Shown here: piece by piece, positions 1,292 through 42,905 of the stretch
How positions within the stretch are numbered: the first letter of the stretch is position 1
Layout: each line of letters opens with the position of its first letter
Source of the DNA: Eledone cirrhosa
Taxonomy: Eukaryota
Length of the DNA stretch: 64,000 nt
Assembly (NCBI GenBank): GCA_964016885.1
Contig: OZ024745.1
Coordinates: 34,410,001-34,474,000 of the forward strand
Direction: 5' to 3'
Notes under the pieces: generated by a model
Databases searched by the model: none
The model's input: the letters and a program-made list of their open reading frames with translations, nothing else
Told to the model about the DNA's origin: nothing
Made by a program: the position numbers and the translations under genes

Positions 1292-1738
1292 TATATAGTA
1301 AGCTAAGGTTCAGTAATAAACCTCTCTGACGTTTTCGCCGAAAGCTACCTAGTTGGCCTAATGGTAGCGCCAGTCCTGCATGTATAATTTCCGCAATATT
1401 CAATTTTCACGTGTCTTACAATCATCCTCTAATTGTAATATTTACGTTTTGCTTACGTCTTATGATTCTTCTACCTTTCCTTTCTTTCTTCCGTCTTTCT
1501 TATTCTCTCTGTCTATCTCTCTTTCTCTGTCTCGTTCCCCCTCTATCGCTCTTTTACGTATTTCTAGTAAATTTCACCTGTTCGATGTAGCATACATTTA
1601 CTTCAAACTCCTCCCATTTCTTTTCGAGTCTCTTATAGCAGCTGACGCTGTTGCTGCTATTGATAATGGTTGTTACTACTTCGATTCACTTAAGAACTTT
1701 TTTAATATTTGCTGAGCAACAGAGCAGAAGACAGAGTA

Positions 1739-1740
<2 letters not shown>

Positions 1741-1825
<85 letters not shown>

Positions 1826-1837
1826 GCACACGCACAC

Positions 1838-1891
<54 letters not shown>

Positions 1892-1981
1892 TCGCACACA
1901 CATACTCACACACTCACACACAGATACTCACACACACATACTCACACACACACATATATATGTATATATATATATATATAT
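1741..1981. repeat. (CA)n/(TA)n microsatellite, representative of dozens in the window
   Basis: Direct reading. Confidence 0.95.
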
Positions 1982-4477
1982 ACACCATATAATTTATAAT
2001 AAAATACTAAGTTACAAATATATGCCAACAATACCTAAATAAATAGAAATTTAATATGTATATCTAGGGCGTAGATCTCAGATAATTGAATTATTGTACA
2101 TTAAAGGATCACAAATTTATACAAATGTGTATTAATATATAATCATTTTATGCGATCACTAAGACTCATTGCCGCATAACAGCCTAGTAGAGAGGGTTCT
2201 ATGGTGTTATTGTATCTTGCAACGGGGTTTCGCGTGAGTGTATCTATACTATATAGTGGAAGATGTAGATATAGTCATGTTCTTAGTTTGGTCAGAGCAA
2301 ATTGTGTTAAAAAGAGGTTTGTCAGCTTACAAAATTGAAAAAGGAGAATAGGGTGCATAACTCGTAGGAAATGAAGCAAATCGTAGAGCTATTCAAGGCC
2401 TTAGACTAACTCTAGGGTGTTAATACCCAGGGACCGTGTCTGAATACATGCAATCACTTCTATCAAAGACAGAAGGAAGGTCACAATGATGGTTTCTAAT
2501 TTAGGCTTAAGACAAGCAATCTGAGGCGTGTAAAGAACTAAATAAGCTTGTCTCTTTAACTAATCCTCAGTTTTAAAAACAACCGATATACTGCTATCTT
2601 CCTTTGTATATGGGTCTCATTCCACATATCGGTGAATGCTGCGTTCAATTATTTTTCAGGGGCACAAAGAAATCCCAAGATGCTTTAGAATTGCACACGT
2701 TGGTTTACCTTCCTTCACACTCACACTACTGTAGCAGCTTCGTGTATAAGAGTACTTATTTTTTTACATGATGTTGCCATGTATACTGTCATTCCTCTAA
2801 ATGTGTCATATGCAAAATTCATCTACTGCAAGTCATATTGTAAAAAATGAAAGTCTCCCCAGTGTAGCTGTGTCTGTGTGAGCGCATGTGTGTGTGTGTA
2901 TGAATATGTGTGTATGTGTGTGTATATGAGTGTGTGCGTGTGTGTGTTTATGAATCTGTGTGTGGGGGAGGGGGAGAAAGAGAGAGAGAGTTTTGTTGTT
3001 GTTCTTGCCAAACATAATGGTCCAACCGTTTCCAAGAGTATTATTCTGAATAAAGATATCAACGGTTTTCCCTTTCCAAAATGTATGTATTTTACTGGAA
3101 AATTATTCTCTTAGTTTTCTTTTTCTCTTGCTGCTAAATATCCGTACAAACACATTCACATTCAATATGGTTGATTTTGTGGGCGTTCCAAGCCACCATT
3201 TTATACATGTATGTAAACAAGATCGAAAAATATATAATTTTTCTAAACAACAAGCCTTTTGTTTTTATCTGGAACTTGTATGGGCAGACATCCAATATTG
3301 ATATACTCAATGTATGAAAATAAGAAAACAAAAATAATTGTCTCATGCCATTTATACCTACTAGATTCCTGGTGTGAAGAGCGATACCAAAATGCATGTC
3401 TAAACAAACAATTAGCGAATAACAACAACAACAATAATATTTATAATTAAAATAATAATGGTGATAATGATTTCTAAAATAGACATAAGGCCAGCAATTT
3501 GGGGGAGCGAATAAAATGATTATATCGATCCCAGTTACATTATTGTATCGAACCCACAAACTACCTCACCGGGATTTAAAATCAGAACATAAAGAGACGG
3601 CACAAATACAGCAAAGCATGTGTGCTACGCGCTAACGATTCTTCTAATCGACAGCCCTACAATTATATATATAATAATTTCGTTTATTACAAGAGTTAGG
3701 TTTTCCATAAAACTACTACAGCCGTCACTCGCAATCGAGTATGACTTGATAGTATGTACTCAACTTTCGATAAAATTCTAAGTGCCCATGCAATCGTTAG
3801 TAAAATACGTATAACCTCTCGACCATTCCTCACTTGGTAACGTGGAATATCTAGGTTGAGTGAGCTGAAGAAAAGACTGCAGCAGTCCTTTATTGACCCC
3901 TACAGGCTGAACGGCAAAATGAACGTCTATGAAATTTGAGTATAGACTTTGCGAAATCGAACTCATGAGGCTTTAGATAAAACAACGTATAAGAAAATAA
4001 TTGTTTCTGATTCAGGCACAAGGCCAAAATCTTTTGGGAGAAGGGAACGTCAATAAAATAGAGCCCAAGGATGAAATGCAAAGCAAATATTAACAAGTAG
4101 ATAAATGAGAAGATATATAAAGAGAAACAAAGAAGCAATATTCAAAAGAGTGACATGAAAGAATTTCAAAAATCCATGAGTACTCTGAATATGGAGGGAA
4201 AGTCTTCATTCATAGTAGCCATTACTAAGAAGGTTATCTCCATGGTTCACTTTGAAAGAATAGCCGAGGTCAATTATCGTTGCTTGTATGTCTCATACGA
4301 TGAGCTTCTTATTTCTCTCTAGCACCGCTTCTTTTTTATGGTTATTGAATCCGCTTTGAACACCTTGCTCACATTTCTCAGCCGATAGTTGCTAACGGTC
4401 GCTCCTAACTGTTAGAGACCAATGTGTGTCAACATTCTAAACAATCTTCTATATATATCTTACTCTATCTCAGTGGA

Positions 4478-4830
4478 TGCAGCATGGCCGAATGGTTAAG
4501 GAGTTCGCTTAATATTCATTAGGTCTCGGGCTCGATGCCATTGCATGGCATCTTGTATAAGAGTCATTGCACAGATACGTGCACACGAGTCAGTCCATGC
4601 ATTGAGAGCGAAATTGTGAAGAAGAAAATTGTTTGGAATCACGTCGGAAGAACCATCTAAAATTCAAAAGAACATTCTTGTCGCACTGTGTCACGTTGTA
4701 GCACCCTGAAAATTACATTGTGTGCATGTATCTGTGGAATCCTCAGTCACTTATTCGTTTGTTTCACTAACAGTATGTGCCTTTGATAGAGCAACTGGAA
4801 TACTCATCATCGAAACTGACAGACATCTAT
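4478..4830 (+). mobile_element. Degenerate tRNA-headed SINE (second family; similar copy at ~9240-9570)
   Basis: A-box-like tggccgaatggttaag, a B-box-like segment, and a shared 3' part (gagcaactggaatactcatc...gaaactgac). Confidence 0.5.
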
Positions 4831-4999
4831 TCCATGTAACTGGTCTGATGTTAATGAAATAGAAATATCTAATTATTTGACAATCATAATAATTAATTTC
4901 TCTGAAATGTAGAATATGAAGCTTATCAATTGTTGACTGTTGAAATACTTGAAAATTACCTGACTAACATATCTAATGGTCATCAGAATTGGTCATTTT

Positions 5000-5530
5000 A
5001 ACAGGTTAGTGTAGTTCATCATTGACAGTGACAGTTTATTTCCCAGGCGCTTTACGATGAATTGCCCGGTTTGGAATTTGTCATGGATTGATTTGTCGGG
5101 GATTGGAAAATCTGGCACGCCTCCGAGTACATTATAGACAACAAAGACGAATCTTTTATTGAGGAATTGTGCAATTATCATGCAACACTATGTTCAGCAG
5201 AATTATAGTCCTGAGTTTGTCAATTAAGTTCCCGTTGTTCGGATCCATTCGCAGCAATTACGCCACTTCCTGGCCTTGGGTATTTAGCACCACGAGAGCG
5301 CGCTATAATGTGCGTCATATTCTCCCAAATAAAATAATTATGACAAATGTTGGCAAGCCCATAAACTTAGTTCTTGATATGTTTTGCTCGGACCACATTA
5401 AGGGGATTACTATGTCCGCATTTTCTATTACAAAGTTCACAATCACCCACAATATATCGTGTGACAGGTCATAACACCATTTGAGTTTCTCTACTGCTTT
5501 GAATATTTCCACAGCGGTGCTACTCGACAA
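5000..5530 (-). pseudogene. Tx1/L1-like LINE reverse transcriptase remnant
   Basis: Minus-strand translation gives NGNLIDKLRTIILLN (RPITLLN-like) followed by IAQFLNKRF...IPDKSIHDK (IPGRSIHDN-like). Stops and frameshifts are present. Confidence 0.6.
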
Positions 5531-7399
5531 AAGTGATTAATGATTTATTTATTGATCACAGAAAGTAATCATATATTTAAGTTAATGATACAAACTTGTA
5601 TAAAACTGTGATCCTTTAAGTTTTACTAATGACTCTCTAATATCTGCATTCTTGATAATTGCGTATTTGGTCAAATGTTAATGCTGGCCCTGCCCAGCTC
5701 ACCCCACTCTGAATGTTCTCAGTCTGCTATCAGTTAGAGCAGATAACTATTAAAACACTACAGTCACATCTTTTTATGTGGCAAAAAAACTAGTATAAAT
5801 AATAGTAATAGTCTTGCTATAAAGGCGCATTTATAGGACCTAGTGGTTAGGGTATTGGGTTTACATTCATAAGCATGGGTTCGATTTGTGGACCGGGTGG
5901 CACGTTGTGTTCCTGAGTAAACCCACTTCATTTCCCGTTGCTCCAATCACCTGAGACAAAAATGTGTACAACCAGCAGAAAATGCGTACCTGCAATGGAC
6001 AGGCGTCATATTCAGGGGTCAGTCATGTACTTTCAGTCTAATATCGCTAATAAATAGGAGATTATTTCCTTCCGGCTTTGATCAGGCTTTAATCCTCATA
6101 GGGTTTCAAAATGAGTGCGATTAATAAACAAGTTAGATAATACCGGTTTTAGGACCAATTAAATTGCACATGTGACAAATAAGATAAAAATGTATATCAA
6201 CATAAAAAAAATTACAAATATATGAGAAAAAAACCCAACATAATTCACTATATAAAAGGTTCGAACCGCCTACATGCTCTTGTTTACAATGTTTCTGTAT
6301 TCTGTTGAAATGTCATTAATATTTTAAAACTCTGTATGTCTTAGTTATTCTTGTTTTTACTGTTTGGCTTATCTTGCAGAATGTTCTGAACGCTGTCATT
6401 GTTTTCTGTTAAAGGGTCGCTCGTTTCCTGTTGCGTGTTTCGACTATTTCTGCATTCTAAGGGTACCCTCTCTTTTTCGTTAGGGAACAGAGACGTTTCG
6501 TACCATTGTCTTCTTAGTGGCATGCTAACTTTATGCCTGGTTTATCCAGGATCATGTTATAAAATGTTCCCTAAATTTGACGAAGAATTTAAAATGTTGA
6601 ATGTATTAGTCTTCAAAAATTTTATTTTTCAGTGATATTTGATAATAAAGCATTTTATATTAAAATCTCTTAATTACAAGTCACTTGCAAAATAATGATT
6701 TAGCCAATCATTTTTGGGCACTCATAAAGTTTAAACTGATATGACAAGTTTATGATTTTAGCATATTGTTTTCAGTTTTATCATTTTTATTTTCTGAAAC
6801 TAATCGTAATGGTATCAACTACTAATAGAAACAAATATAAAGATATATAAATAAATAAATAAATAAATAAATAGATAGATTGTTACAAAAAGGAAATGAA
6901 CCAACATTTCAAGATTGATGGAGCAAACAGTATGGCGTTGTTGATAAGGAAGATAATGTTCGATGCGAGAGGCTGATTGCGAATATAACATGGAATGAAT
7001 AAAGCTATTTTGGCGCTAAGTACAATTCATTCCATTAAAAATACCACCATTATTGTCAACAAAGAATCTAAGGCTTTGTGGTTCAGTTTTCATTCCCAGT
7101 GTGCAGCACTTTAGGCAAGTGTCTTCACGTTAACTTATAACTAGTGGATGAAATTTCAATGACGAATATTACAGAAGCATGTCGTTTATATATATATATA
7201 TATAATTCATTCCAAAAGAGGTGAGCGACGACTTCAGGAAAACGAACGAAACACGTCCATTTTTCCGTTGTCTTCGCCCACCTTGTTTTTATTATTATTT
7301 AAGAAAGATCTTAGCGATGCGGGACATTCTTTCATATTTTGCTCTCATCGGCTAAATGGTGAAGACTACCAATTTGGTTAATTATATAAATTCTTGGCA

Positions 7400-28385: not shown

Positions 28386-28726
28386 AACAAGTATGACCCC
28401 GACGGCAGAGCTCAAACCTATAAAAAGGCTAACCATTCAAGTATCGAGGACATAAATCGGGATGGACAACAATTTACCTCCAGCCTCGTGGTCGCCGACC
28501 GCACTGGACCCCTAGACCCACGGACCCCCTACTTCACACTGAAGGACCACAGATCCGACTTCGACCGTAAACCATCCATCAGGCTTATAAACCCAACGAA
28601 GTCCGACATAGGTTTGAGCTCTGCCGTCGGGGTTATACTTGTTCCTATTACCCACTCTACTACCCTAAGTATTGAGTACTTTGGTGCGTTATGGTCCATC
28701 TGGTTCCTTACCACATTTCCTTCGTT
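28381..28726 (+). mobile_element. Family B element enclosing a PLE reverse-transcriptase fragment (28416-28613) between inverted arms
   Basis: Spacer translates TYKKAN...PYFTLKDHRSDFDRKPSIRLINPTKSDIG, matching the TLKDHK..RLINP..S.IG motif of PLE RT N-terminal regions. Confidence 0.85.
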
Positions 28727-28923
28727 ATATATATATATATATATGTACAGTAAATCCGCACCTTACGAACATCCTACTTACGAAATTTCGCAGATACGAA
28801 CAATCACACGAAGAGAGAAAAAAGTTTGTCTCAGTTTGAAATTCGGAATATCTGTGGGCTCTTTCAGGCCCTGGGTTCCTTTTTTTTTTAAAGCATATAA
28901 ATAAGCTGCAATCGTACCTACGC

Positions 28924-29309: not shown

Positions 29310-29431
29310 CAGTTTATAGAGGTATATATAACATGTAATACTGAATTTACATTCTGTAAAGCTAATGACAATAAATTGTTAAAGGAAAAGAGTACTTTTA
29401 CAATTCTGCGAATACAAAATGTTATGCCATA
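28924..29431. repeat. Nested palindrome with three (TA)n turning points
   Basis: Structure X-Y-(TA)n-Y'-(TA)n-Y-(TA)n-Y'-X', with the unique arms apparently identical. Confidence 0.9.
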
Positions 29432-29445
29432 TATATATATATATA

Positions 29446-29685
<240 letters not shown>

Positions 29686-32770: not shown

Positions 32771-32829
<59 letters not shown>

Positions 32830-33154
32830 GATAAATCTACCAAGAGTTTACGGTAGTGTCCAATCCGTATGAAGAACTCAATGTATTCCGGATATCATGG
32901 AAAGAAGAGATGTAATGAAAAACCACTTTCGGTGAAAGATAAACGGTATACAGAGTCAAGATAAAATATTAAACAAATAATGAATAAACAATTCCTTATA
33001 TTAAACAAAAAAAGTTCATTATTTAACGATCGTTTCTAGGGTATATATGTGTTATAATTGGTATGCATATTCAACAGATCTATGTACAAAATTATACAAA
33101 ATTATACAAATTATCAAGATTAAATATACATACCTAACACATATATACGCCGTC

Positions 33155-34201
33155 AAAAATAGATTAGAGTATATACCTTCTACTAAAAATACTGAAAGCA
33201 TACAGCATAATATTACCAACAAACACCAAATGAAAAGTACACACCTAAATGCCACCCACAATATACCCCAAAATACTAAATCTTCTAATATAAAGTATAG
33301 TAACCCTCAAAAAACTACTCATCATACAACTATAATAAATATTAATAATAAAACTCCTAATAAAAAAGATAAAACACCTAAATCTACAAATATAACTAAA
33401 AATAGTTGTGGTGAGATCATTAACATTAATCCTCCTAGTAAAAATCACGATACAACCTATAAAAATAATAAAAATAATAAACAACATAGAAACCGTAATA
33501 GACGAGTTACTTGGTATAATGCTCCTTTTAATTTACAAGTTAAGGATAATATTGCTAAAAAATTTTTTTATATCCTTGAGAAAAACTTCCCGCCAAACCA
33601 CAAATACCATCAAATCTTAAACAGGTCTACAGTTAAATTCTCATACTCTACAACAAATAACATAAAACAAAATATAAGTGCATATAATGCATATAAATGT
33701 AAGAAAACCATAAGTATACCACCAGTACATCAAATTAACCATAATATCTCCTCAAATACAGAATTAACGAAAGGATGTAACTGTAGAAACAAAGCAAACT
33801 GCCCATTAAAAGGGAATTGTCTTGTTAACAACATAGTCTATAAATGTAATGTTAAAACTAAAGATTCTATTTGCTCATATATAGGAGCTACCTCTAACAA
33901 TTTTAAGACAAGGTTTAATACCCACAAGCATAGTTTTAAAAATGCCGCACTGGCTAATACAACATCTCTAGCAGAAAAAATCAATAGTTATAAAAATAAG
34001 AATATAAAATATGATTTGACCTGGAGTGTGCTCAAAAGAGCCACCCCTTATCAAAATAATAGAAAGGAATGTAGATTATGTTCCCAAGAACTATTTGAAA
34101 TAATGAAGTCTACGGATATCTTATTAAATAAACGACAGGAATTAATTATATCGTGTAATCATAAACTAAAAAAAACATTTAAATATTATAAACCTAATTA
34201 A
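33155..34201 (+). CDS. PLE polyprotein C-terminus: post-RT region (VTWYNAPFN, TVKFSYS), CxC-x5-C linker and GIY-YIG endonuclease
   Basis: CNCRNKANCPLKGNC-LVNNIVYKC...SYIGAT..FKTRFNTH..WSVL..CRLC..LLNKRQE..SCNH, in an uninterrupted frame. The first ~36 aa of the listed ORF derive from the inverted pLTR. Confidence 0.9.
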   Translation, partial: KNRLEYIPSTKNTESIQHNITNKHQMKSTHLNATHNIPQNTKSSNIKYSNPQKTTHHTTIININNKTPNKKDKTPKSTNITKNSCGEIININPPSKNHDTTYKNNKNNKQHRNRNRRVTWYNAPFNLQVKDNIAKKFFYILEKNFPPNHKYHQILNRSTVKFSYSTTNNIKQNISAYNAYKCKKTISIPPVHQINHNISSNTELTKGCNCRNKANCPLKGNCLVNNIVYKCNVKTKDSICSYIGATSNNFKTRFNTHKHSFKNAALANTTSLAEKINSYKNKNIKYDLTWSVLKRATPYQNNRKECRLCSQELFEIMKSTDILLNKRQELIISCNHKLKKTFKYYKPN

Positions 34202-34734
34202 TAACATTATTCTAGAAATTAATTTAATTTAAATGTTAGTTAACCTATAAATTTAATTTAATTAATATTTTATTACAGATGAGAATATAAAATATTATGT
34301 AATCATAAATTGTGAAAAACCTTTAAATATTACTAATATATACTTAGTAATTTAATTTATAGATTAATTTTAATTTATTTAAACCTTTTATTATAACTCT
34401 TTTACAGATAAAATATAACAAAATAATATCGTGTATCCAATGACAGAGAAATAATTTTTAGTATTATAGACCTAATTAATATACATTTTGGAAATATATT
34501 TATTATTTGGTTTTAGTTTTAATCAACCTAAAAATTTTAATTTTAATTTGCTTAAAATTAGTATCCTTATACAGACGAATTGCAGAATGTCATGTAATCA
34601 TAGAATGGGATGTGTTTTGGATATATACCTAGTTAATATATTCTGTGCAATTTTTTGAAAAAGATATGTATATGTATATGTGTATGTGTATGTGTGTGTG
34701 TGTATGTGTATCTGTATGTATGTATATATGTGTA

Positions 34735-34771
<37 letters not shown>

Positions 34772-35399
34772 ATATGTATGTATATGTGTATGTGTATGTA
34801 TATGTATATGTATGCGTATTAATTTTGATTTCTATTTGCATATAATTATATTATGCTATTGATGAAATACAATATCTGCTTTATGTATTGTATACCTAAT
34901 TAACATATACTAATTAACATATACTATTGAAATAAATATATAATTTTTAATTTAGTTAACATATAATTTATATGCTACTACCGATGTAATACTTTATTTT
35001 ATTTTTATTTGGGTTTCTTTTCCCTATTACTAAATTCATTTCCTAATATTGATACCATAACGTTATTAACTTTAATTTAGTTATACTGTAATTAATAATC
35101 TACTACTGTTTGACTTCAAAATTCTGCTTCAAATATTATAAACCTAACTAATTTACACCTTAGAAATCAATATGTTGACTATCTTTGGTTTAGTTAACAT
35201 ATGATTAATGGTATACTTATTTATTTTGAGATGCATAGATTTTGCCTTAGTTCTTGTTTGTCGTATTTCCTAGCACTGAAAATATGTAAGAACATACATT
35301 GAATAAAGATACGGAAAATATTATATGTTTCTTGAAACATATATTTACTTTGATCCCCTTCTCCAAACCCCCCCTTTCCCCCATACTATTATCATCTGT

Positions 35400-35903
35400 A
35401 TTTGTAAGCGTCTATGTATGAATATATATGTAGGTAGGTGTCTATATAGGTTTGGGTATTTATATCTAAATATAAAAATACATATATGCGCATGCAAATA
35501 TGAATGTAAGATTGCGTGTGTATATATGAGTGTACATATGTATGTATATATATGTATATATATGCATTATATATGTATGTGTATGTGAATGTGTTGTATG
35601 TATATGTGTATGTATGTGTATATATGTGTATGTATGTGTATGCTTGTATATATAGGAATATATATATGTATATATATATATGTATATGTATATGCGTGTG
35701 TATGTATGTATGTGTATGTGTGTTGTATATATATGTATGTCTCTCTATTTATATGTTTATCTTCGTATCTATGTGATATATGTGTTGTGTGTGTGCACGT
35801 ATGCATATGTATGTGTTTGTGTGTGTTTGTATGTGTGTGTGTATATATGTGTATGTGCGCACACACACATACACATATATATATGTGAGTGTGTATATGT
35901 GTC

Positions 35904-35957
<54 letters not shown>

Positions 35958-36243
35958 GATATATATATATATATATAGGTGTCTATGTGTGAATATATGT
36001 CTTTATTCGTATGTGTGTATTTATGTATGTATATGTTTATGTGTATGTATGTATGTGTATGTATGTATGTATATATATATATATATATATGTATATGTAT
36101 ATATATATATGTATATTATTCTTTATTATTATAATATAACTTATGTGTATATGTGTATAAGTGAGGTTGTGTATGTGTATATAATATGTGTATATATAAG
36201 TGTAAAAAAATATATATATATATATGTGCATGTCTGTTTTTTA

Positions 36244-36279
<36 letters not shown>

Positions 36280-36361
36280 CGTGTGTATATATATATATAT
36301 ATATATGTGGGTGTTTGTATGTGTATTTATGGTGGTATGAGTGTGTGGATATATATATGTT

Positions 36362-36393
<32 letters not shown>

Positions 36394-36745
36394 AGTGTAT
36401 GTGTGTGTATATATATATATATGTATATATATGTATGTGTATATATATGTATATATATATATGTGTATGTATGTGTGTGTATATATATATATATCTCTAT
36501 TAATGCGTGTGTGTATGTATATACATATGCCTTTTTATTATTATTTTTATTTGTATGTCTGAGTTAGGTGAGGTTGTAGTGTTTTTTATGTATATACGCA
36601 TATATGGAAGCGTATGTATTTATATATATGAGTATAAGTAGGTGCATATGTATGTATGATTATATATCTAATTCTATGTATGAATGTACATCTATATATA
36701 TATATGTGTGTATGTAAGTTGTGTGTGTATGTATCTATATGTCTA

Positions 36746-36786
<41 letters not shown>

Positions 36787-36865
36787 CGATGTGCGTATAT
36801 GTATGTACATGTATGTACATGTATGTGTGTATGTATGTGTATGTATATTTAGATGTATGTGTATG

Positions 36866-36912
<47 letters not shown>

Positions 36913-37650
36913 ATATATATATGGATATATATCTTTATTATTTATTTTTTATATATATGTGTATGTGTGTATGTGTTGCGTGTGTGTGTGTGTGTATATA
37001 TATATCTTTATATATGTGTATGTGTATGTTCGTGTAAGTGTATGTGTGTGTATGACTGTATATGTATGTGTGTATGTGTGTATGCGTAAATATTTCTATG
37101 TGCGCGTACATGTATGTATGTGTATATATCTGTATGTGTATGTATATTATATTATATTTATTATATTTTATTGTTTTATTTTTTTATTTTTCTTAATTTA
37201 TAGATACATTTATATTAGGCAGTCTGCTCAGACAATTGAATACTGACCCCTCCCCCCCCTCCCACCTAATTTCTGTATCTTGATCTTGAAATGTGTGTGC
37301 CAGTGTTTTATGTGAGTGATTTAATATCCATGTGCTTATGATTTTATATCCACATATATAAATGTGAGTGGGGGTGTGTGTGTGTTTGTATGTTCGTGGT
37401 TATGTGTATATTTATGCATATACGCGCGTGTATGTGTGATTGTACTGATATGTGTGAGTATGAAAAAATATATTTATATGCTTGACTCCATAAGTATCAA
37501 TGCGCATCTTATCAGCGCATTTTAAGCTTACAGAGATATTAACCTTGAAATTTTGTGTTTGCATCCATCTTTTTAGTATGCGTATACAAGTTATACATAC
37601 ATTTTTGTAAAATATGTGTAAGGATTTTACATGTATATACACACACCGAA
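35400..37650. repeat. Complex low-complexity TA/TG alternating region
   Basis: ~2.2 kb of irregular tatg/tgta/tata sequence between the PLE ORF and its 3' pLTR. Confidence 0.85.
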
Positions 37651-37728
37651 CTGCTTTTAACCCTTTGTGTTTTCATTGGTCAATTTTGAACTGAAATTTT
37701 GAATTGTTGTTATTATCAATAAATATAC

Positions 37729-37883
37729 TTCATTATTTCTGAAGACGGCGTATATATGTGTTAGGTATGTATATTTAATCTTGATAATTTGTATAATTTT
37801 GTATAATTTTGTACATAGATCTGTTGAATATGCATACCAATTATAACACATATATACCCTAGAAACGATCGTTAAATAATGAA
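37729..37883 (+). ncRNA. Type I hammerhead ribozyme with ~115-nt stem II domain
   Basis: 10-bp stem I ttcattattt/aaataatgaa; CTGAAGA; stem II gtatatatgtgtta/taacacatatatac plus an inner helix ggtatgtatatttaa/ttgaatatgcatacc; GAAAC-gatc-GTT. Confidence 0.9.
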
Positions 37884-37928
37884 CTTTTTTTGTTTAATAT
37901 AAGGAATTGTTTATTCATTATTTGTTTA

Positions 37929-37973
<45 letters not shown>

Positions 37974-37986
37974 GTATGAATGTATA

Positions 37987-38046
37987 TAGGAAAAAGTATG
38001 ACCTCGACGGCAGAGCTCAAACCGTTTCGACAGGTATTTCTGGACA
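37987..38046 (-). repeat. Family B fragment
   Basis: taggaaaaagtatgacctcgacggcagagctcaaaccgtttcgac. Confidence 0.8.
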
Positions 38047-38357: not shown

Positions 38358-38525
<168 letters not shown>

Positions 38526-38535
38526 ATTTATTTTA

Positions 38536-38813: not shown

Positions 38814-38996
38814 TAGGAAAATGTTTAACCCCATTTAAAGCTCAAGCCGTTTCGACGGCTATTTCTGAAATAGCCGTCGAAACAGCTTCAGCTCTGCCGT
38901 CGGGGTTAAACATTTTCCTATTACCGACTCTCCTACCCTAAGTATTGAGAACTCTGCTGCGTTATGGTCCTTCTGGTTGCTTACCACAGCTCCTTC

Positions 38997-39000
<4 letters not shown>
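38814..39000 (+). mobile_element. Family B fold-back mini-element
   Basis: Hairpin centred at ...gctatttc-t-gaaatagc...; same two termini as the other copies. Confidence 0.85.
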
Positions 39001-39043
<43 letters not shown>

Positions 39044-39047
<4 letters not shown>

Positions 39048-39475
39048 GTTGCAAAGTTTTTGTGCATGCAGTGTTTTTCGGGCAGTATTCAGAGAGTTTG
39101 TTCAGTAGCGGGCCCTTTGCAAATAATATTTCGTAGCTCTCTGCGATACAAAGGTCGCAGCACTTGTGTCCTCCCTTGTATGAGCGTGCTTTCTGGAGTA
39201 TTCACCATTTTAGCGTGAAGGGGGTGGAGTACCATTTAAGGTCCCAAACATAGGAGGCGAGTGTTGTATGATTTGATTTGTCCGGTTTTTCTGAAAGAGT
39301 GGGTATGGGCATACCACCGGGTCTTAAAATTATTGGACGTCATGCCGATGTAACTCTTTTGGTTATTGTTATCATCGGTGCCTGAGATGACAACACATTT
39401 GTATACGATGTCATTTATCAGGCATTTGTTTTCAAGTGGGCAGGCTTCCCTATTTAGTCAGTTGCACAAGGCCTC
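39044..39475 (-). pseudogene. Second PLE GIY-YIG endonuclease (decayed; absent from the ORF track as such)
   Basis: Minus strand reads LCN*LNREACPLENKCLINDIVYKCVV...KSYIGMTSNNFKTRWYAHTHSF / TTLASYVWDLK..KW*ILQKA..CDLCIAE..LLNK..CMHK. Confidence 0.88.
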
Positions 39476-39711
39476 AGGTTCGGAGGTGGTTGGCTTATTT
39501 CATTTTCTAGAATATATATATAACCACAACAGAAACAAAAATCCTTCATCTCCATTTTACTTGGAAAATCATAAGAACTGTGGAACCAGTAAAGTAAATA
39601 AATATATATTCTTAAAAGACTCCAGTTGCATTTTGAATTTCTTTTCCTTATATATATATATATATATACACATATGTACACACACACACACACACACACA
39701 GACACACGCAC

Positions 39712-41052: not shown

Positions 41053-41243
41053 AAAAAGTATGACCCCGACGGCAGAGCTCAAGCCGTTTCGACGGCTATT
41101 TCTGGACTCAGAAATAGCCGTCGAAACGGCTTGAGCTCTGCCGTCGGGGTCATACTTTTTCCTATTTCCCACTCTACTACCCTAAGTATTGAGTACTCTG
41201 GTGCGTCATGGTCCATCTGGTTCCTTACCACAATTCCTTTGTT
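41049..41243 (+). mobile_element. Family B fold-back mini-element (perfect hairpin with 4-nt loop)
   Basis: taggaaaaagtatgacccc...ctatttctg-gact-cagaaatag...ggggtcatactttttccta, with (TA)n on both sides. Confidence 0.9.
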
Positions 41244-42905
41244 ATATATATATACACATATATATATAAGGTGTTCCCAAAGTATGTATACACACTTCAA
41301 GAGCATTCTAATAAATATGTGCATATGTATATATAATTATACATATATATATATGTGTCTGTGTGCGTGTGTGTTTGTATGTGTACGGATAAACTGCTAA
41401 CATACGAATACATTTCTGTATATATGTATATACGTTTGTATATTTGTGCGTATAGCTATATATGTAACTATATATGTGCATACCACCTTTTCTCAATTCA
41501 GAATTTCTTTTGACCGACCACATTCACGGTGTCACGGTTGTAGTGAAAAGAATATTTCAACCGTTCCCTGTATATTCATTCCTTCAGATATTAAGAATGT
41601 TTTACATGTTTTGAAGATTCCATATATCATGGCCAATCGTAGCTTAATTATTAAGGAACTGCGCTCTTTATCCAATAATCCTGTTTCAGTCATCTAGATA
41701 GACAGGGAAATTTACAGGTGTCCTTTGACCAAAATAGAGATAAATACGTAATTATTACTAGAAATAAGTGGACAACAGGTCGTGCATGTATGTGTACAAC
41801 ATGAGGCGCCTGAATCAGGGAAAGATTGACTTTTCTAGATGAGATATTCTTGAGTAAGGGTGCATAAACATGTGTAGCTGATACAAGTTACGTACGTAAA
41901 TCTAAATTTTGAAAATTATACGTGTTGGATATCCAGGCACTGAATAATTGATGTCTCAGTGACATTTGAAGTTATTTTTGAGATTGCAAATATCAAATCA
42001 CACAGCACTTAAGTTGAAAATAATAGATTGGACCCATTGACGGAAGTAACGGTTAAAATGTTATGTTAACATCGCTCGCAAGTCCAGATGTTTATCAGGC
42101 CGGATAATTGAGCATTAGATGAATGTACAATACACTGCTCCATCAGACGTTTAACACCCATCACTTTTGCAACTGAATAGACTGGGGAAACGTAAAATCA
42201 TTTACTCTTGCTGAAGAATACAATGTATTACCCATCCAGGAATAGAACCCACGACATTACGACCGTCAGCCTAACAACCTGACACTAGACCGTGCATCTT
42301 TATGTGATGGTGATAGTGTTAATATAAAGTGTTGCACTATCCCATCGGGGAAAATACGAATATGAAAAAGCGAACTAAAATTGGTGAGAAAATAATAAGC
42401 ATACCAGGTGTTCATGCAATGAAATCGTTTTATTGTTGCAACATTTTTTAAATAATAAACATCACCTCATACAACATATGGATGACTCTGTGACAATATA
42501 TTTCATAATAATTAGAATGAAGATCAGTGATGGCAGAAATAGAAAAACATCTGACAGTATGGATGGATGATTCTTGCATGCATATAAGATTCAATATAAT
42601 TCAGTGTGAGGTTGTTCCTGTCTTTGACCGTTTAAACACTAAACATGGTGAATGTTTTGGTTAAGAAGTATATAAAGATATTATTGAAATTATCATAAAA
42701 AGGTAAGTTGGCAGAGTCGTTAGAGTGTCAGGTAAAATGCCTTGTAGTATTTATTCCAGCTTTTTTACATACTGAATTCGGATATCACTAAGGCCAACAT
42801 TGCCTTCCATGCTTCCGAGATCGATAACTAAACTACCAGTCAAATACTGAGGTCGATATAATCGACGTCTTCTTCTTACATAATTTGTTGACGTTGTGCT
42901 TAAAT

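Follow-up and report, generated by a model that had tools for sequence, protein, structure and literature searches.

A recently inserted, 5'-truncated Hydra-type Penelope-like element and its element-borne TA/TG tract in Eledone cirrhosa

Structure of the insertion

The window, a 64,000-nucleotide stretch of the Eledone cirrhosa genome, contains a Penelope-like element (PLE) framed by the two halves of a (TA)n target run, which TRF placed, with no strand assigned, at 32772 to 32826 (27.5 perfect units) and 37935 to 37988. At the left, "tailed" end, an inverted 134-nt tail (32827 to 32960, reverse strand) corresponds to bases 1 to 134 of the element's unit, with a 99.3% match to unit bases 1 to 137. 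It is followed by an inverted, 5'-truncated pLTR arm (32961 to 33154, reverse strand; unit bases 6321 to 6514) that breaks inside the hammerhead core. On the right lie a type I hammerhead predicted from motifs and fold (37730 to 37882, forward strand) and the rest of the 3' pLTR (37883 to 37937, forward strand), which by sequence comparison stops at the "untailed" end, where (AT)n adjoins it. The arms at 32961 to 33154 and 37744 to 37937 are 194 nt each and 100% complementary. A preliminary description of this DNA had given 32961 to 33154 as the entire left arm; this 194-nt part is indeed inverted, but the arm is truly 328 nt long and includes the tail at 32827 to 32960.

The 3' part of an ORF, recognized by its motifs and by comparison with a full-length ORF, occupies 33155 to 34201 on the forward strand. 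Its frame (33155 to 34198) is open for 348 aa, has 99.4% identity with residues 466 to 813 of a full-length copy's ORF, and covers the end of the RT thumb, an N/K/T/H/S-rich linker, a CxCx5C motif, and a GIY-YIG-type endonuclease; a Pfam search with this truncated ORF returned zero matches. The copy starts at base 1684 of the 6,514-bp unit, with the reverse transcriptase gone. The complementary pLTRs and uninterrupted endonuclease frame had earlier been read as marks of a young insertion, a reading that agrees with the 2 differences from the commonest letter found here in 1,046 bp.

The ORF end and the bases that follow (34096 to 34660, forward strand) form three to four degenerate tandem copies of about 140 bp (repeat family D10). 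Four of their six pairwise scores exceed all 300 shuffles, and a sister family, L216, holds younger and clearer versions. All further features up to the pLTR lie on the forward strand as well. TRF and other copies identify a small element-borne TA/TG block of 150 bp (34664 to 34813), and a C-rich run followed by a donor-like GTAAGC at 35404 (35355 to 35410) forms the 5' edge of the main element-borne TA/TG tract (35404 to 37150, core ends approximate), delimited by TRF and by alignment with other copies. Beyond the tract are a pyrimidine run ending in TAG that is acceptor-like by an ad hoc score (37150 to 37203) and complex 3' sequence that contains another C-rich run and a patch rich in TG (37204 to 37729; anchor counts of 852 and 1,583). 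About 3.5 kb separates the stop codon from the terminal repeat, as had been described. The microsatellite-like tract is likewise present, but the 2.2 kb first assigned to it is too large, because 37200 to 37650 is mostly complex sequence; the core measures about 1.75 kb (about 35404 to 37150).

Family, clade, and insertion ends

Full units of the family measure 6,514 bp (range 6.3 to about 7.2 kb; 6.3 to 6.6 kb in tandem units) and encode a single 813-aa ORF, with RT (YRDD at 346) followed by a C-terminal GIY-YIG endonuclease. Judged by its sequence, the element belongs to a young Penelope-like family that bears the motifs diagnostic of the Hydra clade, a group of C-terminal endonuclease PLEs that includes Hydra-1_Obim of Octopus bimaculoides (Craig et al. 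2021, PMC8557442). DKT replaces DKG at residue 115, and the CxCX5C linker reads CNCRNKANC at 673, both as in the Hydra clade. The clade's N-terminal RWK motif is present at residue 37 in the form RWR; among 56 aligned proteins, 29 carry RWK and 10 RWR. CxxC and CxH flank a conserved E and N (CRLCSQE at 771; N...CNH at 790 to 801). The CCHH motif is absent, the GIY-YIG core having no CxxC, and two far-apart cysteines that are present are not conserved in the homologues displayed. Assignment of the ORF to the Neptune clade was considered and rejected, the linker being CxCx5C rather than CX2-5CxxC and the CCHH motif being absent. The likeness to Hydra-1_Obim was also noted in a by-eye comparison. 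An endonuclease tree built from proteins other than the reference Hydra proteins gave no answer on a common origin of families A and B, both of which bear tracts.

Insertions of the family pair two arms placed back to back, and of their two ends one is tailed and the other untailed, an arrangement seen in 32 of 33 outward-facing end pairs. The 134-nt tail is the start of the 5' UTR and in tandem units comes directly after the pLTR. Arm break points cluster in part, 24 of 72 falling within unit bases 6251 to 6360. The proposal that (TA)n is the insertion target, a Hydra-clade property, was borne out: AT repeats adjoin all 112 ends examined, at least four AT units being joined directly at 99 of them and imperfect AT runs at the other 13. 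Genome-wide, 4,031 tailed and 1,914 untailed ends were found joined to AT repeats. An apparent difference in G/C polarity of the TA flanks between tailed and untailed ends was not significant (P = 0.30).

A hammerhead motif in the pLTR, also characteristic of the Hydra clade, is suggested by motif and predicted fold. It would comprise CTGAAGA at 37739, an approximately 120-nt hairpin as stem II, GAAA at 37862, and a palindromic stem III, with a predicted cut after 37873. The region folds with z = -6.9, and the hairpin is preserved across eight diverged variants. An Rfam search gave no hammerhead match, its only matches being sub-threshold and nearly all of them microRNA models on repeats.

In the mechanism proposed here, the endonuclease would nick a (TA)n run, which is self-complementary, on both of its strands. 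Each 3' end would then prime reverse transcription at either of two fixed sites that lie 134 nt from one another, and the resulting pair of cDNAs would join at their truncated 5' ends.

Origin of the TA/TG tract

The preliminary description had suggested that the tract was part of the element, to be recognized by aligning copies at different loci. Among 38 other copies selected by endonuclease sequence, 35, at 25 loci, carry the same 3' region; their tracts align in register and the pLTR marker lies 3,556 to 4,111 nt from the stop codon, which bears out both the suggestion and the expected sharing across loci. The remaining three comprise one with an insertion and two that run into assembly gaps. 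Seventeen further 3' regions measure 3,845 to 4,551 nt; the extra block in the longer ones is a second copy of a unit of about 0.7 kb that also occurs in an older subfamily. Short-period TRF arrays cover 79% of the repeat core, and each 3' region holds about nine TA runs of at least 10 units. Against the window copy, the tract shows 4 to 48 substitutions per approximately 1,740 aligned bases and 8 to 28 indels, compared with 0 to 2 indels in the unique parts upstream. Its length changes through internal duplication, slippage, and gain or loss of the 0.7-kb block, and no sign of captured host DNA was seen among the copies compared.

It would be extraordinary if the tract were instead host DNA enclosed between two separate insertions or spread by segmental duplication. 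We found no point in favor of that reading; it is refuted by the in-register tract at 25 loci with differing flanks, and the staggered 5' truncations and tandem units of 6.3 to 6.6 kb also oppose it. Because 5' truncations fall inside the tract (8 of 72 arms), we infer that it moved as RNA with the element.

The tract is thus a fixed part of a 3.6- to 4.5-kb 3' non-coding region, and likely a weakly constrained passenger. Low constraint between ORF and hammerhead would allow it to grow by slippage, and copying with the element RNA would then provide new landing sites for TA-targeting elements, the family itself included. Three observations serve as counterpoints to the passenger reading: a recurrent G-on-sense polarity that a purely neutral passenger does not predict, splice-like motifs at the tract borders, and self-insertion possibly above chance. 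Family C, another young family of this clade that targets TA, succeeds with a 1-kb, only mildly TG-rich 3' region and so needs no large tract, and Hydra-type families with short UTRs are common in the genome.

A refinement that does not exclude a passenger is that 35404 to 37203 is a retained spliceosomal intron of the 3' UTR, which we regard as possible but doubtful. Such an intron would leave the translated mRNA yet stay in the reverse-transcribed RNA, so that kilobases of repeat could be tolerated. PLEs are known to keep introns (PMC8557442, PMC3846280), and the donor-like GTAAGC at the tract's 5' edge is retained in 50 of 53 copies and is the same in older subfamilies. Conservation of motifs is, however, expected anyway among copies at least 95% identical; the window donor lies outside the top six by our ad hoc score, and in the sister family 5 of 15 copies lack the GT of this donor, a variant that they have in common and that spread nonetheless. 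The best acceptor of the whole 3' region falls about 50 to 120 nt past the tract in four sequence groups (ranking first among 75 AGs in the window copy, 76 in the long subfamily, 37 in an old subfamily, and 39 in the sister family, whose downstream sequence does not align with that of the window's family), and the last seven bases of the acceptor-like site are retained in 53 of 53 copies. Family B has GTRAG after a C-rich run in all 19 copies where it was found, but this motif is frequent in TG/TA DNA and the family's acceptor is unclear; the top donor of family C is AG|GTAAGT, its acceptor ranking fourth of 34. The boundaries were moreover spotted after the fact. No precisely spliced genomic copies were found for two donors of the window's family, family C, or the sister family, which is uninformative if introns are retained. 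Contigs from sequencing runs presumed to be RNA showed no junction between the two flanks, with little useful coverage of either site.

The sense strand of the tract is G-biased (287 TG, 22 CA). The sister family and family B share this polarity, and family C has it to a lesser degree. One explanation, which we consider unlikely, is A-to-I editing: ADAR would edit self-pairing (UA)n RNA and retrotransposition would fix the A-to-G changes, turning sense-strand TA into TG over many rounds. Rare tract variants do include more A>G than T>C (85 versus 30), as do rare isolated interruptions of TA runs (33 versus 5), and the unique parts have no such excess (11 versus 19). Yet G>A is also raised (62), as expected if TA and TG units slip or are shifted against one another in the alignment; TA runs of the host that lie in TG-polar sequence are biased in the same way (24 versus 0); and a one-way burst was seen neither in any of 32 copies nor in the pLTR hairpin. 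Host introns near 28 myosin exons have 29 TG and 13 CA windows (genes, 4 versus 3).

Nested insertions, simple-repeat content, and known systems

In two verified cases the family has inserted into a tract of its own, and two more cases are candidates. At C1:42.67 Mb, a younger pLTR piece sits in the tract of an older copy, with both host flanks intact. At C1:147.78 Mb, the two arms of a single insertion each contain a pLTR-plus-tail piece, located in both at the same TA run, and a search for this piece elsewhere located it only in those two arms. Self-insertion may exceed chance: among the ends listed, 3 of 144 are self-inserted against 0.7 to 0.9 expected (P = 0.03 to 0.06), but two of the three have the downstream host flank only. 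Other elements also insert into the carried tracts.

A possible feedback loop had been put forward in which the element would disperse sequence similar to its own (TA)n target and thereby underlie the genome's microsatellite richness. The loop exists, since the family and other elements insert into the carried tracts; its role as a driver of that richness is unsupported, because the family's approximately 1,580 tracts make up only an estimated 1.1% (0.9 to 1.5%) of short-period tandem repeat DNA and, among TA runs with at least 10 units, about 0.6%. The first share was estimated from 1,583 anchors, counted at 1,861 bp each, and from a repeat content of 8.7 ± 1.2% in 38 stretches of 10 kb at even spacing; it omits the sister family and family B as well as decayed copies and tract growth after insertion. 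That tracts from the element and its clade became a main microsatellite source over time is most improbable. Self-insertion does occur, the tracts are split by two to nine foreign blocks in 4 of 4 two-ended family B copies, and the clade is very abundant, with Hydra-type endonucleases in 10 of 38 random stretches. Against such strong feedback stand the small shares just given, the lack of a tract behind most of these Hydra-type matches, and the 58 of 81 end flanks that are ordinary sequence beyond the TA run, only 6 being TG-tract-like.

Taken together, we think it rather likely that the locus holds a recent 5'-truncated Hydra-type PLE insertion whose inherited TA/TG tract is probably a passenger, offers landing sites, and contributes with its family only an estimated 1% of the genome's simple repeats. 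A broader combination, in which several Hydra families retain tract introns, sow (TA)n, nest above chance, and undergo editing, appears very unlikely; were it true, tracts summed over families and ages would be a substantial source of TA/TG mosaics.

The favored reading provides a case, observed directly, in which a target-specific retroelement carries its own target and uses it again, and a measured share that makes one such family a small microsatellite source. About 1,600 loci resembling host low-complexity DNA are element sequence, which is relevant for repeat annotation and marker design. With intact full-length copies, this young family could also serve as a test bed for (TA)n priming and intron retention. 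A search of titles and abstracts, covering few subscription papers, returned no description of a long tract-bearing Hydra element or of self-insertion into a carried target.

As far as the accessible text of Craig et al. (PMC8557442) describes them, Hydra elements share with this family RW(K/R), DKT, the CxCx5C linker, CxxC/CxH around the conserved E and N, the (TA)n target, the 5' inverted arm, and a tail at one end; their hammerheads agree in layout and in a loop III of 1 nt or none. Members of the clade are, however, described as generally short (<3 kb), with 1,080 to 3,045 bp in all 27 published families against 6.5 kb here, more than doubling the clade's size range. The 3.6- to 4.5-kb 3' region with its repeat tract also sets the family apart, as do the 134-nt tail (30 to 40 bp described for PLEs) and the stem II hairpin of about 120 nt (3 to 7 bp published).

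PLEs retain introns (PMC8557442, PMC3846280, PMC4209133), and such retention would explain how a large, dispensable segment persists when the element retrotransposes; the introns in the sections available lie in 5' UTRs, ORFs, or carried host genes, whereas the candidate here is in the 3' UTR. SSR-carrying PLE copies have already been reported in Litopenaeus vannamei, where recent Penelope copies are >98% identical and contain internal SSRs in syntenic positions, which travelled with the element and lengthened afterwards; TE carriage was proposed as a route of SSR expansion (Yuan et al. 2021, PMC7878876); the accessible parts of that study give no clade, target-site link, self-insertion, or per-family share. 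Alu tails, MITEs with hitch-hiking repeats, and the hypervariable 3' UTRs of plant LTR elements similarly disperse simple repeats from a weakly constrained part of the element (PMC9659126, in the portion available). Unlike these, the repeat carried here is the element's own insertion target.

Window copy and the tract that it carries

The 5'-truncated Penelope-like (PLE) insertion at 32827-37937, in the window C5:34,410,001-34,474,000 of the 3.0-Gb assembly, has (TA)n runs at both outer ends and 194-nt inverted arms (32961-33154 and 37744-37937) that are 100% complementary, with a 348-amino-acid open frame at 33155-34198. The preliminary description had reported identical terminal repeats (pLTRs), an uninterrupted endonuclease frame and a young insertion; all of this holds, the ORF departing from the commonest letter of the family at only 2 of 1,046 positions. 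Relative to the 6,514-bp full-length unit, defined by a tandem copy (L034; 289-nt 5' UTR, 813-aa ORF, 3.78 kb of 3' sequence), the window contains bases 1684-6514, plus an upstream inverted piece made of bases 6321-6514 and the next 134; because the part before base 1684 is missing, this copy lacks the reverse transcriptase. The TA/TG core of the tract extends from ~35404 to ~37150, short-period tandem repeat makes up 79% of 35401-37180, and sense-strand dinucleotides are strongly polar (287 TG vs 22 CA).

The tract is element-borne. Querying with the endonuclease region gave 1,808 candidates, of which the 40 scored were 99-100% identical. Among 38 endonuclease-selected copies with sufficient downstream DNA, 35 (25 loci, some copies being two arms or tandem units of a single insertion) have 3,556-4,111 nt between stop and pLTR marker (3,730 nt in the window copy), instead of the short 3' UTR that the preliminary description had considered as the sign of a locus-specific tract; the other three carry a foreign insertion (one) or hit assembly gaps (two). 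Across aligned copies the tract keeps its register; substitutions relative to the window copy number 4-48 per ~1,740 bases, and indels cluster within the tract. Seventeen additional 3' regions, selected by tract anchor or pLTR match, measure 3,845-4,551 nt, the extra ~0.7 kb being an internal unit that is present twice; since this duplication also occurs in an older subfamily, the window's subfamily probably lost one copy. Three or four degenerate repeats of the ORF end, each ~140 bp, open the 3' region. Truncation at the 5' side falls inside the tract in 8 of 72 arms (back-to-back inverted pieces), the pattern that copying of the tract by reverse transcriptase would give, and we infer that the tract passes through an RNA step.

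Insertion at (TA)n and into carried tracts

Direct junctions to at least 4 AT units were found at 99 of 112 ends, the remaining 13 joining imperfect AT runs. Exact ends joined to AT numbered, genome-wide, 1,914 untailed (pLTR end directly at (AT)n) and 4,031 tailed (pLTR plus the 134-nt start of the 5' UTR); these patterns capture old subfamilies unequally. Along C1, over its first 103.6 Mb, outward-facing pairs combined one tailed and one untailed end in 32 of 33 cases. Targeting of (TA)n by Hydra elements has already been published (PMC8557442), and one-sided tails are known for PLEs generally, where they measure 30-40 bp, compared with 134 nt here. We infer two-strand priming, in which a self-complementary (TA)n run would be nicked on both strands and both would prime reverse transcription at two fixed RNA sites. 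Folding (z = -6.9) predicts a type I hammerhead in the pLTR, its stem II being long. A 110-nt segment on the hammerhead's 5' side (unit 6251-6360, window 37674-37783) contains the breakpoints of 24 of 72 arms. Such breaks yield many ~370-bp inverted pLTR pairs, MITE-like in look. Near-pure (TA)n of ~1.1 kb with scattered G follows straight after the tailed end at L146:5622-6750 (C1:89.589 Mb) and other ends; it could stem from expansion, from stuttering synthesis or from a long-read artefact.

A feedback loop, in which the element inserts into targets that it carries, is demonstrated but small. At C1:42.67 Mb the tract of an older copy, intact on both sides, has received a younger pLTR piece from its own family in a TA run and also houses a foreign element. 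At C1:147.78 Mb, a locus chosen via the tract anchor, the two arms of a single insertion share a pLTR+tail piece at the same TA run; template switching could also have produced this arrangement. Ends at L146 and L231 run into an older tract, host sequence forming only the downstream flank. Self-insertion affects 3 of 144 listed ends vs 0.7-0.9 expected (P = 0.03-0.06), which weakly suggests an excess over chance; our literature search found no verified self-insertion into a carried target. Foreign elements also lie within tracts at L041 and L067, and 2-9 foreign blocks interrupt a similar TG-polar tract in all four copies of family B, an older Hydra-type family, with both ends covered. A single non-coding element of ~600 bp, its tail of TATG type, recurs in tracts of three Hydra-type families (L041, L170, L229, L299). 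A 161-nt repeat (family D9) has four copies (28591-28751, 29426-29586, 38864-39024, 41108-41268), mostly adjoining TA runs, and similar pieces lie within family B tracts.

Contribution to genomic repeats

In 38 evenly spaced 10-kb stretches, short-period repeats made up 8.7 ± 1.2% of the DNA and TA runs of at least 10 units numbered 283. The 3' regions of 53 copies average 1,861 bp of short-period repeats and 8.9 such runs, and a degenerate anchor immediately 3' of the tract was counted 1,583 times, an upper bound for whole tracts of the present family. The family's contribution is 1.1% (0.9-1.5%) of short-period repeats and 0.63% of long TA runs, excluding decayed tracts and post-insertion growth; adding a sister family and family B (1,545 and 1,369, candidate counts rather than copy numbers) would bring the estimate to roughly 2%. 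Hydra-type endonucleases were present in 10 of the 38 stretches, mostly with no tract behind, and the 3' region of family C, which is young and TA-targeted, spans 1 kb. The causal arrow therefore looks mainly reversed, with abundant (TA)n feeding Hydra elements rather than elements making (TA)n: the nested insertions bear out the loop proposed in the preliminary description, but at ~1.1% not its role as the source of microsatellite richness.

Extrapolation from 10 positive stretches in 38 puts the Hydra clade at perhaps 100,000 fragments genome-wide. Family B (about 40% identity in the endonuclease region) left an endonuclease relic at 39050-39481 (minus strand); copies of this family combine a C-rich run with a GTRAG motif and a TG-polar tract full of insertions. 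A family C end piece was recognised by eye at 38480-38535, that family having a ~95-nt tail and a two-end design like that of the present one.

Origin of the tract and relation to known elements

The simplest of three readings is that the tract is a passive passenger. A retained intron in the 3' UTR is suggested by two features: GTAAG at the 5' edge of the tract, and the position of the top-scoring acceptor-like site of the 3' region, which in four lineages comes shortly after the tract (the downstream sequence of one of these lineages cannot be aligned with that of the present family). Yet the splice-site score is ad hoc and the donor GT is absent in 5 of 15 sister-family copies. Precisely spliced genomic copies were searched for in the present family, family C and the sister family and none was found, which is uninformative if introns are retained. 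Contigs from presumed RNA runs, aligned to the two flanks, likewise gave no RNA junction. As for the polarity, inherited A-to-I editing agrees with the excess of A>G over T>C, seen both among rare variants in the tract (85 vs 30) and among rare isolated interruptions of TA runs (33 vs 5). However, G>A is likewise raised (62) and host TA runs have the same A>G bias. Abutting TA and CA/TG arrays in the window (TRF; no formal count) are almost invariably arranged CA-then-TA or TA-then-TG, one polarity read on either strand.

Penelope copies carrying microsatellites were shown in shrimp (PMC7878876), and TE-borne microsatellites have been reviewed (PMC9659126). The consulted parts of PMC13282606 name Penelope-like families that are active in O. 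vulgaris but do not give their structure, and those of PMC3124438 and 10.64898/2026.07.22.740005 hold nothing on carried tracts. AG/GTATGT in the hammerhead hairpin (37763-37771) and an acceptor-like site shortly 5' of the ATG (unit ~245) could mark a 5' UTR intron, which would parallel Penelope's own. A ~100-aa linker (33185-33490; 67% N/K/T/H/S), which accounts for an ORF of 813 aa vs about 700 in most homologues, is reminiscent of the N-rich inserts found in Penelope ORFs of Adineta (PMC3846280). Protein motifs (RWR, DKT, CxCx5C, CxxC-E and N-CxH, with CCHH absent) fit the Hydra clade, whose features are RWK/R-type, DKT, CxCx5C and CxxC/CxH motifs and no CCHH (PMC8557442). The protein also resembles Hydra-1_Obim, which suggests an octopus-like host. 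In the sister family, whose ORF is 86% identical, the tract measures 0.3-0.5 kb. Our literature search found no Hydra element of 6.5 kb, and the element is an unusually long form within an already known clade, its unit measuring 6,514 bp compared with 1,080-3,045 bp in the 27 Hydra families tabulated in PMC8557442.
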